Source of the DNA: Crocosphaera subtropica ATCC 51142
Lineage (GTDB): Bacteria > Cyanobacteriota > Cyanobacteriia > Cyanobacteriales > Microcystaceae
Assembly: GCF_000017845.1 (NCBI RefSeq)
Contig: NC_010546.1
Location: 2,400,001 to 2,432,000 of the forward strand
Reading direction: 5' to 3'
DNA: 32,000 nt
Both the position numbers and the translations under genes were made by a program. Shown here piece after piece: positions 7,393 to 24,681 of the stretch. Each line of letters starts with the position of its first letter. The stretch's first letter is position 1. The notes below the pieces were generated by a model that made no database searches, was not told the origin of the DNA, and saw only the letters and a program-made list of their open reading frames with translations.

Positions 7393-9132
7393 ATGATTAA
7401 CACCAATGGTAAACATGAAAGAGACGACGATCTCACGCAAAAAAACTCAGACCAAGGGTCATCGGCCTTAGCTACCACTGATAATGCTAACGATCCCTTA
7501 TCTAGAAACTTATTAGCCCCTATTACCTCCGAACACGCCGTCATCCTCCGTCAATCTCCTAGTTGGTCTAGAGGAGTAGTCTGGACGATTATTGGCGTAA
7601 CCACCGCAAGTATTGTCTGGGCGGCCATTGCCAAAATAGAACAGGTGGTGCCAGCACAAGGACAACTCAAACCCCAAGAAGCGGTTAAGGAAGTCCACGC
7701 CCCCCCCGTCGGTGGTGCAGTCGTAGAAGAAGTATTAGTCAAAGATGGGGAAAAAGTCAAACCAGGAGACATCCTAGTTATCTTAGATTCAGAAGCCAGT
7801 ACCGCAGAGTTAAAGTCTCTAGAAAAAGTCAAAGCTTCCTTAGAACAAGAAAATCGGTTTTATCGAACCTTGATGAATCAATCCCTCGACCCTTCAGACG
7901 TAGAACGAGCCATTATTAAACTCGATTTACCCACCGAAGTTGCAGCCCTTGCTCGCAACCGTGCGGCCTTAATGGCAGAAAACCAACTTTATCAAGTTGA
8001 ACTGGGTAATCAAGCCTCAGGAACCAGTTTAACCCCAGAACAACTAGCTAGACTCCAAGCTTCTCAAGCTGAATCTTCCTCTAGAGCATTATCAGCCCAA
8101 CTCGAAATGGATCAGCTAGAAAAACAACTCAGGCAAACTCAAGTGGAATTAGCGGATGCTAAAAAACAATTGCTCGATGATCGCAAAGTGTTAAACGAGA
8201 TTCAACAAAGAAACGAACAAGCCATTAAAGAAGCCAACAAAGCCCTCGAAATTGAAGAAGCCATACTACAAGATATTGGACCGTTGGCCGAAGAAGGGGG
8301 CGTGGCTCGCTTACAAGTAGAACGACAGCGACAAACCATCGCTGAACGACGACAACAACTGACAGAACAAAGAGCCAATGGCACCATTGAATACGATCGC
8401 CAAAAACAACAAGTTCAAGATCGTCTCAAAGAAATTGAACGATTTACAGAAGAAGAAAAACGCTTAAAAATTGCCATTAATCAGGCACAAGCTCGATTAG
8501 TCAATACCGTTAAACTAACAGAAAAGGACTTGAGGGACAAAATTGCTGATAATAAAGAAAGAATTGCTGATATTGACAGTCAATTGAATAAAACGATTAT
8601 CGAAAACGATAAAAGAATTGCTGAATTAGGGAGTCAAATCAGTCGCACAAACGTGACCCTTAAATATCAAGAAATTAAAGCCCCTGTAGGGGGGACAGTG
8701 TTTGATCTCAACGCTGGCCCCGGTTATGTTCCTCCCCCAAACCAAACCGAACCCCTCCTGAGAATTGTGCCTGATGATAATTTAATTGCTGAAGTGAATA
8801 TTACTAACCAAGATATCGGTTTTGTACGAGTCGGTCAGCAAGTTGATGTGCGAATTGATTCTTTTCCCTTTAGTGAATTTGGGGATATCAAAGGAGAAGT
8901 CATCTCCATTGGTTCTGATGCCCTAGAACCAGACGAAATTCATCAATATTATCGATTTCCTGCCAAAGTAGAACTGGATCAGCAATACTTAACCACTGCT
9001 GACCGAGAAATTCCTTTACAATCAGGAATGTCTGTGACTGCTAATATTAAAGTCAGGGAAAATCGTACAGTGCTAAGTTTAATTACAGAATTGTTTAATA
9101 AGAAAGTGGAAAGTCTCAAACAAGTGCGTTAA
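7393..9132 (+). CDS. HlyD-family periplasmic adaptor (membrane fusion protein) of a type I secretion-like system
   Basis: 579 aa. It has an N-terminal TM segment (VVWTIIGVTTASIVWAAIA) and a lipoyl-like motif (VKDGEKVKPGDILVILD). A very long Q/E/L-rich coiled coil follows, then a C-terminal beta-barrel (IKAPVGGTVFDL...VGQQVDVRIDSFP). It lies directly downstream of the ABC exporter. Confidence 0.85.
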   Translation: MINTNGKHERDDDLTQKNSDQGSSALATTDNANDPLSRNLLAPITSEHAVILRQSPSWSRGVVWTIIGVTTASIVWAAIAKIEQVVPAQGQLKPQEAVKEVHAPPVGGAVVEEVLVKDGEKVKPGDILVILDSEASTAELKSLEKVKASLEQENRFYRTLMNQSLDPSDVERAIIKLDLPTEVAALARNRAALMAENQLYQVELGNQASGTSLTPEQLARLQASQAESSSRALSAQLEMDQLEKQLRQTQVELADAKKQLLDDRKVLNEIQQRNEQAIKEANKALEIEEAILQDIGPLAEEGGVARLQVERQRQTIAERRQQLTEQRANGTIEYDRQKQQVQDRLKEIERFTEEEKRLKIAINQAQARLVNTVKLTEKDLRDKIADNKERIADIDSQLNKTIIENDKRIAELGSQISRTNVTLKYQEIKAPVGGTVFDLNAGPGYVPPPNQTEPLLRIVPDDNLIAEVNITNQDIGFVRVGQQVDVRIDSFPFSEFGDIKGEVISIGSDALEPDEIHQYYRFPAKVELDQQYLTTADREIPLQSGMSVTANIKVRENRTVLSLITELFNKKVESLKQVR

Positions 9133-10385
9133 TGGGACAAACAAAAACAATGGATTTATTGGAATATCAGGCTAAAGAACTTTTTCATCAGGTAGGCATT
9201 CCCGTTTTACCCTCCCAACCCATTGCTCAACTTAGTGAACTTAAACACCTCCATATTCGTTATCCAGTGGTCTTAAAATCCCAAGTCCATTCTGGGGGTC
9301 GTGGCAGGGCCGGAGGCATTCGTTTTGTGCAGAATACCATCGATGCAGTGGCTGCAGCCCAAGCTATTTTTAGCTTACCCATTTTAGGAGAATATCCCGA
9401 AGTGATTCTGGCTGAAGCTCGTTATGATACCCAGGACGAATTTTTTCTCTCCATTCTCCTCGATTATCAATTACAACGGCCGGTGTTAATGGGTTCAGCT
9501 AAAGGGGGAATTGATGTAGAAACCCTATTGAAACATATGCACAAAGTTATCCTCGATCAAGGGTTTTCTCCTTTTTATGCCCGCCGTTTGGCTACCAAAA
9601 TGGGTCTTCGGGGTCCCCTGATTCATGGGGTGAGTACCATTCTTGAAAAAATGTATCAATTATTTATCGAAAAAGACCTCGATTTGATTGAAATTAACCC
9701 CTTAGCTGTGAGTGCCTCTGGAGAAGTTATGGCTTTAGATGGGAAAATAACCGTCAACGATATGGCCTTATCCCGTCATCTAGACTTGTTGAGCTTTCTT
9801 TCTCCGAAAGCTGATCAGACCTCTAGCGTCTCCCCCAATCAAAACATTGTCACCACACCTCCTCAAAAACCCCGTTGGCTTGGAAGTAAGGAAAAAGGGG
9901 GTAATGTGGGTATCATTGCCAATGGGTTGGGACTCACCTTAAGTACCTGGGATCTGATGGTTAACCAGAAAGGACAACCCTTAGGAGCTTTTATTATTGA
10001 AGAAAAAAGTAGCAGTAAATCGTTAATTAAACAGTTAGGAATTGCTGTAGAAAAAATGCTCACTCTTCCTGAGATTCAAATCATTTTAATCAATATTGTC
10101 AGTAGTGAACCAACATCGGCCTTAGTTGCTCAGGGGATGCTGGATTATTGTCAACCGACTATGGTGACACCGGATAGCGAAGAACGATTATCCCGACCAA
10201 CAGGGGCAAATTCTACCCGCCAAAGACAGATAAACTCCTCTCCTAATTCTAACCCTATCCAATGGGTTCTGAGACTGGCTACAGGGGATATCAAGTCCAT
10301 CGAAACATCCCTTTCTGATTTACCCATTTATTGTTTTGAGGATCTTAGCGAGGCGGTTAAAAAAACCGTTGCGTTAACTCAGTAG
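9132..10385 (+). CDS. SucC-like ATP-grasp protein (succinate--CoA ligase beta-subunit homolog, divergent C-terminal domain)
   Basis: 417 aa. The N-terminus MDLLEYQAKELFHQVGIPV...VVLKSQVHSGGRGRAGGIRFV matches the SucC ATP-grasp start (MNLHEYQAK...VKCQVHAGGRGKAGGV). The ATG at 9132 overlaps the HlyD stop (TAATG). An alternative start is M7 at 9150. The C-terminal half keeps GNVGIIANGLGLTLSTWDL but lacks the glycine motifs. Confidence 0.75.
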   Translation: MGQTKTMDLLEYQAKELFHQVGIPVLPSQPIAQLSELKHLHIRYPVVLKSQVHSGGRGRAGGIRFVQNTIDAVAAAQAIFSLPILGEYPEVILAEARYDTQDEFFLSILLDYQLQRPVLMGSAKGGIDVETLLKHMHKVILDQGFSPFYARRLATKMGLRGPLIHGVSTILEKMYQLFIEKDLDLIEINPLAVSASGEVMALDGKITVNDMALSRHLDLLSFLSPKADQTSSVSPNQNIVTTPPQKPRWLGSKEKGGNVGIIANGLGLTLSTWDLMVNQKGQPLGAFIIEEKSSSKSLIKQLGIAVEKMLTLPEIQIILINIVSSEPTSALVAQGMLDYCQPTMVTPDSEERLSRPTGANSTRQRQINSSPNSNPIQWVLRLATGDIKSIETSLSDLPIYCFEDLSEAVKKTVALTQ

Positions 10386-10390
10386 TTAAC

Positions 10391-10583
10391 CTGAGTTCGG
10401 GTTTCGGAGTTAGAGCATTATTGCGGAGGCGACTCAACCGTCGTCACACGGCGGTTAGAAAACACACCAAGCAGAGGAGACAATAGGTGTTTCAGACAAC
10501 GATAGAATTGACCAAGGAAGTGCGCCGAGGTGTCCTCGGCAAGCACAAGTCTTGGTTAGTCTTTCAGCTTATCCCGAACTCAC
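10391..10583 (-). mobile_element. MITE-like or PATE-like non-autonomous element carrying the 41-nt terminal module of the IS200/IS605 tnpB 3' end
   Basis: Positions 10391-10431 are 39/41 identical to 22597-22637. There are perfect 10-bp inverted termini: TGAGTTCGGG at 10392-10401 and CCCGAACTCA at 10573-10582. TAGTTAA direct repeats flank it at 10383-10389 and 10586-10592. Internal hairpins lie at about 10436-10456 (8-bp stem) and 10524-10540 (GCCGAGG-TGT-CCTCGGC). No ORF is present. Strand is given by analogy with tnpB orientation. Confidence 0.55.
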
Positions 10584-10619
10584 CTTAGTTAAATAAATTT
10601 AGTCAAACATACAAAAATC

Positions 10620-11540
10620 ATGAAATGGGAAGCCGATAGTAAAGTTTTAATTCAAGGAATCACCAATCCGTTAGGAATTAGTTATGCTGCACGGATGAAA
10701 GCCAAGGGAACCAATATTGTTGCAGGCATTACCCTAGAAGAACAAACGGCCGAAATGGATGATATTCCCATCTTTACTTTGGTAGAAGAAGCCGTGAAGC
10801 AGATAGGGGAAATAGAGATTAGTCTAATTTTGACCCCTCCTTACGAAGTCTTAGACGCTGGATTAGAAGCCATGGCCGCTGGCATCAAACAATTAGTGAT
10901 TGTCACTTCTAGAGTTCCTCCCCTCGATTTGATCGCACTCCTAGAACAAGCTCAAGTGACTAATACTTTTGTCTTGGGATCAGGAAGTGAAGGGTTACTG
11001 GTTCCCGATCAGTTTTGGTTAGGGATTATGGAACCCGACTTCTATACAGCCGGTCAAGTGGGGATTATTAGTCGTTGCGATCGCTTAATGGATGAGGTCG
11101 CCCTCAATCTAACTCAAGCAGGGTTAGGGCAGTCTTTAGCCATTAGTTTAGGATCTGATGCCGTCATGGGATCGAATTTTGAGCAATGGTTACAAATCAT
11201 GGAAGAAGACGAAACCACCGAGGCGATTATTTTATTAGGGCAACCTTATAGTAGTCCAGAATTATTAGCTGCAGAATATATCGATTCAGCCATAGAAAAA
11301 CCCGTTATTGCTTATCTTCCAGGGATTCTAGCCCCCATGAACCGCAGTTTCGGCGATGCAACTAGCATTATTGCCAGTCAATTATCTTATCAAAGGGGAG
11401 ACAAAACCAGGGAAAATCCAACCATTACAGCCCTCAAAAAAGCTGGTGTTAAAATTGCCAATAGTGTTGAGGAAATTCCCAAATTAACCAAGCGGATTTT
11501 TTCCAATCAACGTCGTAGGTCAAGAACCGTCAATAAGTAA
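10620..11540 (+). CDS. SucD-like CoA-binding protein (succinate--CoA ligase alpha-subunit homolog lacking the catalytic histidine)
   Basis: 306 aa, colinear with SucD: KVLIQGITNPLG.., VGIISRCDRL.., GSNFEQWLQIMEEDETTEAIILLG.., KPVIAYLPGILAP. The phosphohistidine loop reads RSFGDATSII instead of RMGHAGAII. Confidence 0.75.
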   Translation: MKWEADSKVLIQGITNPLGISYAARMKAKGTNIVAGITLEEQTAEMDDIPIFTLVEEAVKQIGEIEISLILTPPYEVLDAGLEAMAAGIKQLVIVTSRVPPLDLIALLEQAQVTNTFVLGSGSEGLLVPDQFWLGIMEPDFYTAGQVGIISRCDRLMDEVALNLTQAGLGQSLAISLGSDAVMGSNFEQWLQIMEEDETTEAIILLGQPYSSPELLAAEYIDSAIEKPVIAYLPGILAPMNRSFGDATSIIASQLSYQRGDKTRENPTITALKKAGVKIANSVEEIPKLTKRIFSNQRRRSRTVNK

Positions 11541-22550: not shown

Positions 22551-22596
22551 ACTTTGGCTTTCCTATAGCAACCTTAATGCGGAGTGCTATATAAAG

Positions 22597-22770
22597 CTGA
22601 GTTCGGGGTTTGGAGTTAGAGCATTATTGCGGAGGCGGTTGAAAAGCGTACCTCTCCCTGATCCTCTGTTCGCATGACGTACTCCAGGCGTTCGTTGCTT
22701 AGGCAACAGAACGCTGGCTTCTCCTCTTCTGAGCGCGAAGATTTGCGTTTTATAGTGAGGCGAACGCCCA
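22597..22770 (-). ncRNA. predicted TnpB omega RNA (right-end RNA) scaffold
   Basis: By position: it overlaps the last ~50 codons of tnpB and runs to the element's right end, where omega RNAs are encoded. It is densely structured. GGCGTTCG at 22687-22694 pairs with CGAACGCC at 22761-22768, and a GTTGC-TTAG-GCAAC hairpin lies at 22694-22707. The terminal 41 nt are conserved in the second element. Extent is not experimentally defined. Confidence 0.45.
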
Positions 22771-24031
22771 ACCCCACTTTTTTAATCAATATCCCACTGT
22801 TAATATCTCTTGCCATTGATGCACCACAATCACAAGAATGCCAACGATCTGATAGTTCTTTGGGAACATAATTAAGACAAATTGCACAATATCGACTTGT
22901 ACCTTTTGGATTAACTTTAACAACTTTCTTACCAGCTTTTGCAGCTTTGTAAGGAAGAATCTCGTTAAGAAATCCAGAGATACCAGCATCAGCAAAACTT
23001 TTATTTAATCCAGATTTAGCCGATTGACCATTAGGTAGAAAAGTCCCATCTTCTCCCTGTTTAGGCTTGTTTCGTCTAGACATATTTGATATCTTTAAGT
23101 TTTCGACAAATAAAACATCAGCTTTATCTAATAGTTGATTAGCTAATTCATAATGCCATTGTTGACGTTGCCTCGCTATTTTCTGATGAAGTTTGGCTAC
23201 TTTTTGGTTAAGTTTTCTTCTTGCTTTAGATCCTAATTTTCTACTATCTCTTTTTGATTGAAGTTTAGTTAATTTATCTTCAGATTGACGGTAGAATTTA
23301 GGTGGCTTAACAGTAGTTGAGTCACTGCAAGCAACGAAAAACTCCAAGCCACTATCTATCCCTAAACTGTTTTCTTCTGTTGGTTGAATATCTACAGTTA
23401 AGCTAGGAACTGATTTATCTTCAAGTGTTAACGTTACATACCATCCATCAGCCTTTTTGGTAATTAAAGCACGTTTTACTGTAAATCCATCAGGCAAAGG
23501 GCGATGTTGAATAAACTTAATTTCACCTAATTTGGGGAAAGTAATGCGATTATTATTAACACAGTCAGCCTTGATAGATGGAAACCCAATTGTACGATAC
23601 CTATTCTTTCCTTTAAATCGAGGTTTACCACTACGTTTTCCATTTTTGTCCCCCTTGATATAACGGCTAAAAGCAAGATCAACTCTTTTTACCATATCTT
23701 GTAAAACATGGGCATGGATGTCTTTATACCAAGGACGTTCTTGTTTTAATTGAACTAATGACCTTTTTTGTCTGTAATATTCTGGTTGTTCTCTAGGTTC
23801 AGCAATACTACAAATTAAAGGACAAGAATCAATATAAGTTCGGTTATTTTCCCACCAATCAAATCTATCAGCCAATAAATAATTATACTGACATCTTAGT
23901 TTTTCTAACCAACTATTTAGACGACAGCGTTGTTCGTAGTTAGGTTTTAAACGGTATTGATAGGAAACTATTATGGGTTTACCTCGACCTGCTATAATGA
24001 CTGTAACACAAAATAGCAACGGTGACAACAT
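22616..24031 (-). CDS. tnpB: TnpB, RNA-guided endonuclease (IS200/IS605 accessory protein, OrfB)
   Basis: N-terminal YQYRLKPNYEQRCRLNSWLEKLRCQYNYLLADRF is typical of TnpB. RuvC-I is LGIDSG (D248 in track numbering), RuvC-II is LFVENL (E332) and RuvC-III is ARDINSG (D431). The zinc-finger cysteines are CAIC...CDCG. The start is uncertain: ATG at 24031 (M23 of the track ORF) is chosen, and the homologous region begins about 20 aa later with no canonical start codon there. Confidence 0.85.
   Translation of the reverse strand: MLSPLLFCVTVIIAGRGKPIIVSYQYRLKPNYEQRCRLNSWLEKLRCQYNYLLADRFDWWENNRTYIDSCPLICSIAEPREQPEYYRQKRSLVQLKQERPWYKDIHAHVLQDMVKRVDLAFSRYIKGDKNGKRSGKPRFKGKNRYRTIGFPSIKADCVNNNRITFPKLGEIKFIQHRPLPDGFTVKRALITKKADGWYVTLTLEDKSVPSLTVDIQPTEENSLGIDSGLEFFVACSDSTTVKPPKFYRQSEDKLTKLQSKRDSRKLGSKARRKLNQKVAKLHQKIARQRQQWHYELANQLLDKADVLFVENLKISNMSRRNKPKQGEDGTFLPNGQSAKSGLNKSFADAGISGFLNEILPYKAAKAGKKVVKVNPKGTSRYCAICLNYVPKELSDRWHSCDCGASMARDINSGILIKKVGLGVRLTIKRKSSRSEEEKPAFCCLSNERLEYVMRTEDQGEVRFSTASAIML
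23993..23998 (+). promoter_or_regulatory. candidate -10 box (TATAAT) for tnpA
   Basis: A perfect TATAAT lies 32-37 nt upstream of the tnpA ATG at 24030. There is no convincing -35. Confidence 0.3.
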
Positions 24032-24437
24032 GAAAGATGATTTTGTTTCTAGTGGTAGAGCAATATCAGACTTAAAAGCACACTTAGTTTTGACCACTAA
24101 GTATCGCCGTAAAGTATTTACGGGGTCAATGATAGAACGACTTCAAACTATAATATGGGAACTCTGTTGTAAGTGGGATTGTAAGATGATTGAGGTCAAT
24201 GGCGAGGCAGACCACATTCATTTACTTTTTCAATATTATCCACAACTAGAATTGCCTAAATTTGTAGGTAATTTAAAATCTATAACAAGTCGCCGTTTAA
24301 GAAATGAATTCCCAGAGTTAGCTAATGTTTATAAAAAGTCAGTTTTGTGGAATGAATCTTATTTTATTGCTAGTTGTGGAGGCGTAACAGTATCCCAATT
24401 GAAAGAATATGTTGAGAATCAAAAAACTCCTAATTGA
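24030..24437 (+). CDS. tnpA: IS200/IS605-family Y1 (HUH) transposase TnpA
   Basis: 135 aa from ATG 24030. Motifs: KAHLVLTTKYRRKVF, the HUH motif in ADHIHLLF, and C-terminal SYFIASCGGVT with the catalytic Tyr region. The size is typical of IS200 TnpA. The track ORF from 23973 adds 19 aa without homology. Confidence 0.85.
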   Translation: MKDDFVSSGRAISDLKAHLVLTTKYRRKVFTGSMIERLQTIIWELCCKWDCKMIEVNGEADHIHLLFQYYPQLELPKFVGNLKSITSRRLRNEFPELANVYKKSVLWNESYFIASCGGVTVSQLKEYVENQKTPN

Positions 24438-24681
24438 CAAATTTTCGGACATCGAGTCCTTAATTTGTCGGGCTGTCCTTCCCGACACTGAACTTCGTTA
24501 CAGTGCGGGGCTGTCGCCGTTAGCTCAACTAATCATCTCTATTGTTAATAAAGAGAATTGGTATCACCTCGGTCAGTCTAAAGTTTTTCAGTGGAATCAG
24601 TGGTGAGACTCCGAGAGATGATTTATGGTAGAAATAGAAAAATTGTGTTATTAAATGCGATCGCAATATTAGGGAAAGATT

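Follow-up and report, generated by a model that had tools for sequence, protein, structure and literature searches.

What is the small inverted-repeat element that separates the sucC-like and sucD-like genes of Crocosphaera subtropica ATCC 51142, and is it related to the TnpB-encoding insertion sequence (IS) that lies 12 kb away? The question arises in a 32,000-nt stretch of contig NC_010546.1 (positions 2,400,001 to 2,432,000; hereafter the window), where a 41-nt module at one edge of the element recurs at the place where the tnpB open reading frame (ORF) ends. The original prediction, made from the letters of this stretch, offered three readings: i) a non-autonomous derivative of the IS that makes a TnpB-loadable guide RNA; ii) a MITE (a miniature transposable element with inverted repeats) whose end was captured by the IS; and iii) a structured RNA that processes or terminates the operon transcript. 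The analysis described here leads to a modified form of the second. The element, at 10389-10585, is very probably a non-autonomous MITE of the IS982 family, with the remnant of a second copy 12 kb away, and not a TnpB guide element.

The two 10-bp arms first noticed in the element, TGAGTTCGGG (10392-10401) and CCCGAACTCA (10573-10582), are indeed perfect complements, and the sequence TAGTTAA is found at both 10383-10389 and 10586-10592. An insertion of 193 bp had been proposed; the insertion is real but its bounds required refinement. Read in the register of the family described below, it runs ACC-TGAGTTCGGG ... CCCGAACTCA-CCT and occupies 10389-10585 (197 bp, no strand assigned), and the flanking repeat becomes a 6-bp target-site duplication, TAGTTA (10383-10388 and 10586-10591, plus strand), whose left copy includes the TAG stop codon of the sucC-like gene (10383-10385). 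The left terminal inverted repeat, ACCTGAGTTCGGGT (10389-10402, plus strand), is canonical in its outer 13-14 nt, and its inner part, TTTCGGAGTTAGAGC..., deviates from the consensus [A/T]TAAG. The right terminal inverted repeat, CTTATCCCGAACTCACCT (10568-10585, plus strand), is canonical on the inside (CTTATCCCGAACTCA) and carries the outer triplet CCT where the family has [C/G]GT. From 10389 the left end reads ACCTGAGTTCGGG and the right end, read inward, AGGTGAGTTCGGGATAAG, with one substitution in the outer triplet. The inverted repeats begin 5'-AC, as those of the IS982 family do. The element is well below 300 bp in length and contains no transposase-related ORF; the longest of its ORFs are 42 and 33 aa, neither of which corresponds exactly to a protein on record, and its concatenated six-frame peptides retrieved nothing at E <= 10 from 5.8 billion proteins. 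The first copy of the module (10391-10431, plus strand) consists of the outer inverted repeat and ~29 nt of subterminal sequence specific to a sub-family. Inverted-repeat ends and a target duplication are features absent from IS200/IS605 elements, as the original prediction had pointed out.

The two flanking genes allow the site to be compared with its orthologs, a comparison that the original prediction had proposed. The sucC-like gene (9132-10385, plus strand; ATP-grasp_2 domain) lies upstream of the insertion and the sucD-like gene (10620-11540, plus strand; CoA_binding and Ligase_CoA domains) downstream, the domains being those of Pfam. Cyanothece sp. BG0011 (86%) and Crocosphaera metagenome-assembled genomes (MAGs) encode the closest homologues of the sucC-like protein. 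The two genes are separated by 234 nt in the window, by 27 nt in BG0011 and by 89 nt in one Crocosphaera contig, and they overlap by 4 nt in three others. When the relatives are aligned, ...AAAAAAACCGTT...TAG runs directly into the conserved region that precedes the ATG, with no element between. Removal of the element from the window restores a junction like that of the relatives, as had been claimed. The sucC/sucD sites of the relatives are empty, the polymorphism expected of a MITE, and, judged from these alignments, the element is a true insertion absent from the orthologous junctions.

The 89-nt spacer, found in a Crocosphaera-like contig (L088, 3743-3831), was considered as an eroded MITE at the same site and rejected: 298 of 1000 shuffles scored as high against the element and 21 of 1000 against the second copy, which is not significant. 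The sucC/sucD junction of the Crocosphaera-like group is variable, in that this spacer is unrelated to the MITE. Two sequencing runs contain identical sucC/sucD genes, and their public short-read assemblies both break in the loop of the central hairpin of the MITE (the end of L001 and the start of L002/L003, at about window position 10523-10530) with an overlap of just 4 nt. This pattern suggests that coverage dropped at the hairpin, and not that a repeat caused the assembly to branch.

The family to which the element belongs was recognized by its ends. Metagenome contigs were scanned with the pattern TGAGTTCGGG-N155-185-CCCGAACTCA, and at least 120 loci matched, giving at least 120 similar elements of 175-205 bp, typically with target duplications of 5-7 bp. 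Among the matches listed, 111 elements had sufficient flank for positions outside the search pattern, both flanking and inner, to be scored; the counts that follow refer to these. AC...GT stands directly outside the searched bases in 75 of the 111, and [A/T]TAA extends both ends inward in 74, the arms continuing as [A/T]TAAG. The left flank T-A-A-C-[C/G] and the right flank [C/G]-G-T-T-A are strongly conserved. Direct repeats of 5-8 bp in the matching register occur in 48 of the 75 AC...GT elements, and those abutting the AC...GT ends measure 5 bp in 14 cases, 6 bp in 16 and 7 bp in 17. The end consensus of this IS982-type family is TAAC[S]TGAGTTCGGG[A/T]TAAG (logo AC[C/G]TGAGTTCGGG[A/T]TAAG). 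The family duplications (loci L089-L208; 5-7 bp) mostly start and end with TA, and the flank positions next to the element are T-A at either end, a pattern suggestive of staggered cleavage at TA steps of variable spacing. One match to the pattern, L096 (2200-2420), was discarded as an array of CCYNAAC heptamers and not a MITE. Across 1.2 Mb of cyanobacterial tnpB loci, sequences that loosely match the inverted repeat occur without the AAC[S] context and look like chance; L077, where the full ttaaccTGAGTTCGG context is present, is a possible exception.

IS982 transposase genes, too, are found between these inverted repeats. In locus L131 (628-1613) the ends ACCTGAGTTCGGGATAAAAG...CTTATCCCGAACTCAGGT enclose a 980-bp element with a single ORF of 295 aa, which the NCBIfam model NF033520, 'IS982 family transposase', matches at 256 bits against a cut-off of 130 and PF13612 at 229 bits; next to this element is a family MITE of 189 bp. 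In locus L184 the same left end precedes a second IS982-like gene, 30% identical, which is split by a family MITE. Annotated IS982 elements related to the family are located on cyanobacterial plasmids. For example, the IS982 of Leptolyngbya boryana plasmid pLBX, CAATCTG|ACGTGAGTTCGAC...GTCGAACTCACGT|CAATCTG, has the same architecture and a 7-bp duplication, and an annotated IS982 of Nostoc flagelliforme (pNFSY05) terminates in GTCGAACTCAGGT. The target duplication is short and variable throughout: 6 bp in the window, 5-7 bp in the family and 7 bp in pLBX. These properties are those described for the IS982 family, whose members are ~1 kb long, have inverted repeats starting 5'-AC and variable-length direct repeats, and include many cyanobacterial relatives, ISNsp1 of Nostoc being listed among them (PMC7335449); MITEs derived from IS982 elements are known from Cardinium (PMC9769881). 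Comparison of the sequences demonstrates that the ends belong to the IS982 family and that partner elements exist in other genomes. Family members also cluster, a MITE abutting a full IS982 in L131 (427-1613) and another lying within the transposase gene of L184 (2344-3300), and several contigs (for instance at the L103 and L152 loci) carry two or more copies.

The second copy explains the resemblance that raised the question. Base-by-base comparison of 10391-10431 with 22597-22637 gives 39 identities in 41 positions, as originally counted; a repeat search extends the match to 44 nt at 93%, and blastn inside the window finds it at E = 8.5e-14, with nothing else in the window matching the element significantly by local BLAST. 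The short GGTT(A)GAAAA identity noted earlier is also real: a 22-nt indel, at which copy 1 has ACTCAACCGTCGTCACACGGCG between GAGGCG and GTTAGAAAAC, separates it from the rest of the match; because of this, the similarity of copy 2 reaches ~22647. The 22 nt present in copy 1 alone (10432-10453) fold together with adjacent bases into a small hairpin, AACCGTCG TCACA CGGCGGTT, and GGCG bounds the insert on both sides, as expected of a slippage indel. Copy 2 (22595-22647, plus strand; AGC TGAGTTCGGGGTTTGGAGTTAGAGCATTATTGCGGAGGCGGTTGAAAAGC) holds the module at 22597-22637 and has no matching other end. It starts AGC-TGAGTTCGGGG, and its non-canonical subterminal sequence equals that of the left end of the full copy; therefore, both copies belong to one sub-family. 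When the 3' part of the MITE was compared with this flank of the IS, none of 500 shuffles reached the score. The possibility that the IS had split a complete second MITE was tried by reconstructing the site without the IS and rejected, as the DNA on the far side of the IS left end, compared with the 5' half of the MITE, scores lower than the mean of the shuffles. Since no significant MITE similarity lies there, copy 2 is, on the present alignments, best described as a solo end that by chance lies 37 nt from the IS.

That the module lies outside the IS follows from the delimitation of the IS itself. Filamentous cyanobacteria contain very many relatives of this TnpB (~425 aa, compared with 471 aa in the window), and 80 loci were retrieved for comparison of boundaries. 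At least eight copies in Lyngbya sp. PCC 8106 share the window IS sequence up to ...GAACGTCTGGAGTACGTCAC, after which each diverges. All copies start TGAGCTAATGGCGACAG, the left end in the window being TGAGCTAA at 24527. Cyanothece BG0011 is the host's nearest available relative; its copy, with a TnpB 92% identical, shares both ends, and copies in nine further genera (TnpB identity 65-77%) end at GGGAGTAYGTCAC, preceded by stems that covary between genera. The right end, ...GGAGTAYGTCAC in 13 copies from other cyanobacteria, falls at 22674/5 in the window (...GGAGTACGTCA(C/T)). The module at 22597-22637 is 37-78 nt beyond this point and, because independent copies all end at 22674/5, it is flank DNA and not part of the IS. 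The original prediction had the module spanning both the tnpB stop codon and the right end of the IS. It is true that the stop of the ORF lies within the module (22616-22618), but the IS ends at 22674/5. The ORF reaches the module because of a 2-nt deletion near 22745, seen by comparison with the PCC 8106 and BG0011 copies, which shifts the frame past the native TAA so that translation continues to 22616. The capture of a MITE end by the IS can be restated accordingly: the small element is a MITE, and what was taken for capture is an IS that merely adjoins a solo MITE end, into which a frameshifted ORF runs.

The module had also been assigned to the 3' part of the omega RNA, which is not compatible with an IS that ends ~37 nt before it in 13 copies. 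A covariance model of the 3' scaffold was built from ten other genomes, with the window left out, and searched with filters off. It matched at full length at 22674-22782 (113.8 bits, E = 5e-29) and had no match at E <= 10 in either 10389-10585 or 22597-22637; a weak second match at 24481-24509 corresponds to the hairpin at the IS left end, as would be predicted for an IS200/IS605 element. The proposed TnpB-loadable RNA with the guide GTTAACTACTGAGTTAACGC has no basis, as the small element is without an omega-RNA scaffold at E <= 10.

Several observations weigh against an IS982-family MITE and have to be set beside this evidence. The interiors of the family elements are unrelated to each other and to the window element, so that the ends alone match. 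A tblastn search of the 32-kb window, and of the window alone, found no IS982 transposase. The element had no blastn match among PLSDB plasmids, and an exact 23-mer of the module had 0 matches in genome contigs and 0 in metagenome contigs; since these searches and that with the peptides were all empty, the module sub-family may be confined to the source lineage. One full copy and one solo end of the sub-family are seen, within the 32-kb window only. Finally, because the left inverted repeat is canonical for just 13-14 nt before it diverges on the inside and the right outer triplet is CCT and not [C/G]GT, the window copy may no longer be mobile.

With these points taken into account, the following sequence of events is proposed. 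The element would be a transposase-less miniature of an IS982-family IS, retaining just the two terminal inverted repeats, and an IS982 DDE transposase supplied in trans would bind these repeats and mobilise it. Insertion right at the sucC-like stop codon would have duplicated 6 bp (TAGTTA), leaving both this stop and the start region of the sucD-like gene intact, and the MITE would now form a 197-nt, strongly self-pairing spacer in the presumed sucC-sucD co-transcript. The match at 22597-22637 would be the terminal repeat and subterminal part of a second copy of which one end remains, and the apparent tnpB link an artefact of a frameshifted ORF running out of the IS into this remnant. Mobilisation in trans, the co-transcription of sucC and sucD and any effect on the operon are inferred.

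Whether the spacer has acquired a function is a separate matter. The MITE could have been co-opted, its structured RNA acting in the sucC-sucD transcript to direct processing, affect stability or uncouple translation and so shift the subunit ratio. The plus-strand RNA of the region has a strong predicted fold (-80.6 kcal/mol, z = -4.4), in which the two ends pair around a long central hairpin, and the close spacing of the genes in relatives (27 nt apart or overlapping by 4 nt) suggests coupled expression that a 197-nt insert would disturb. Intercistronic ERIC, repetitive extragenic palindromic (REP) and Correia elements can alter mRNA stability. If this were true, a folded MITE between a stop codon and the ribosome-binding region of the next gene would uncouple or re-tune the SucCD-like subunits, for example through RNase processing or mRNA stability, and a co-opted spacer would be a naturally occurring example of a cyanobacterial operon rewired by a MITE. 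On the other side, a scan of 10200-10800 found no promoter-like or terminator-like sites; Rfam 15 had no family that reached its gathering score anywhere in the window, or E <= 10 within 10300-10700; no conserved interior is held in common with other family members; and a neutral passenger accounts for all the observations. Co-option is for these reasons considered unlikely, and the MITE is regarded as a passenger. The junction-spanning hairpin of AACTCAG (10376-10382) and CTGAGTT (10391-10397), described originally, was recovered as a predicted fold. As a family trait it was rejected, since it occurs in 0 of the 111 left flanks; AACTCAG is ancestral coding sequence, a Crocosphaera MAG having CTAACTCAG at the equivalent site, and the hairpin is treated as a coincidence.

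A second alternative is that the element is a native intergenic palindromic repeat, REP-like or made of short tandem heptamers, and not a transposon, with a flanking repeat that is coincidental. The module does show a loose 7-nt periodicity (GTTCGGG TTTCGGA GTTAGAG at 10393-10413 and 22599-22619), and the heptamer array of L096 matches the scan pattern by chance. Such a repeat is very improbable in view of the absence of the element from orthologous sites, a 6-bp duplication that lies exactly in the family register, and ends identical to those of transposase-bearing IS982 elements. Finally, a non-autonomous IS200/IS605 derivative, whether a palindrome-associated transposable element (PATE) or a stand-alone omega-RNA gene, guiding TnpB (22616-24031) is scarcely credible: the 39/41 match adjoins tnpB, the tnpB-frame ORF stops within it and the element's minus-strand RNA folds with 5' and 3' ends paired, like the 3' region of the IS, but the module falls outside the IS as delimited by 13 copies elsewhere, the scaffold model, at 114 bits for 22674-22782, has no match in element or module at E <= 10 with filters off, the two share nothing apart from the module (the element having no similarity to the IS left end, 24481-24527, or to the right end), inverted-repeat ends and target duplication are both lacking in IS200/IS605 elements, and the ends belong to IS982 elements.

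The IS605-type insertion sequence (22675-24527, minus strand), an entity separate from the MITE, has features of its own. It contains a Y1 transposase gene, tnpA (23973-24437, plus strand), and tnpB on the minus strand, both identified by Pfam domains. The conserved, structured 3' segment (22674-22782, minus strand), a putative omega-RNA scaffold, ends at the right end of the IS; its three stems covary over ten genera, its end GGGAGTAYGTCAC is invariant, and it corresponds to no Rfam family. The read-through tail of tnpB (22616-22701, minus strand) extends past the native TAA at 22701-22699 into the flank and the MITE remnant. This tnpB copy (22616-24097, minus strand) looks damaged: the native C-terminus and stop are lost and the ORF is 46 aa longer, and the start Met of the relatives is Ile in the window, so that translation would need an in-frame start upstream. 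The stem of the left-end hairpin (24481-24510) is CACTG/CAGTG in the window, compared with GTTC/GAAC in PCC 8106 and BG0011, and the right-end hairpin (22684-22717) retains GCGTTC/GAACGC; the two TnpA-binding hairpins of the window copy no longer match each other. The same element (TnpB 90-92% identical) is found at 12 or more loci in Lyngbya sp. PCC 8106 and at one in Cyanothece BG0011. Since its hosts are far apart, this degree of identity points to a recent horizontal spread.

The main value of the analysis is a correction. A frameshifted tnpB ORF made an unrelated repeat resemble a TnpB guide-RNA module, and delimitation of the IS by comparison of independent copies removes the apparent link. 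Two of its products are also useful for annotation: clean ends for a widespread group of IS982-type MITEs (TAAC[S]TGAGTTCGGG[A/T]TAAG, with 5-7-bp duplications that are usually TA-bounded), and, for a cyanobacterial family of IS605 type, the right end together with the RNA scaffold conserved at the 3' side. Neither is conceptually new.

Among known systems, the window element is closest in its ends to the IS982 elements of L. boryana pLBX and N. flagelliforme pNFSY05, with which it has in common 5'-AC inverted repeats and the sequence ACSTGAGTTCG. As in IS982 elements, TG...CA ends are set within an AC[S] triplet and the duplication varies (7 bp in pLBX, 6 bp in the window). Unlike them, it is 197 bp long, lacks a transposase gene and has an interior unrelated to any examined. 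The ERIC/IRU, Correia (CREE) and RUP elements, which are ~100-200 bp long, have inverted-repeat ends and form long mRNA hairpins between co-transcribed genes, resemble the window element in these respects and differ from it in belonging to other or unknown transposase families and in having documented effects on mRNA. The PATEs and omega RNAs of IS200/IS605 (PMC10055086, PMC3119063) are likewise small, structured and non-autonomous, and one copy of the window repeat adjoins tnpA/tnpB; PATEs, however, retain both hairpins, left-end and right-end, of their parent and have neither inverted-repeat ends nor target duplication, and the window element departs from them on all three counts. MITECca01 and MITECca02 of Cardinium, which derive from the IS982 element ISCca4 and are ~240 bp long (PMC9769881), differ in host phylum, in sequence, in their abundance in the Cardinium genome and in the presence of the parent IS there, none being found in the window. 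They are like the window element in being short and transposase-less and in being bounded by IS982-family repeats.

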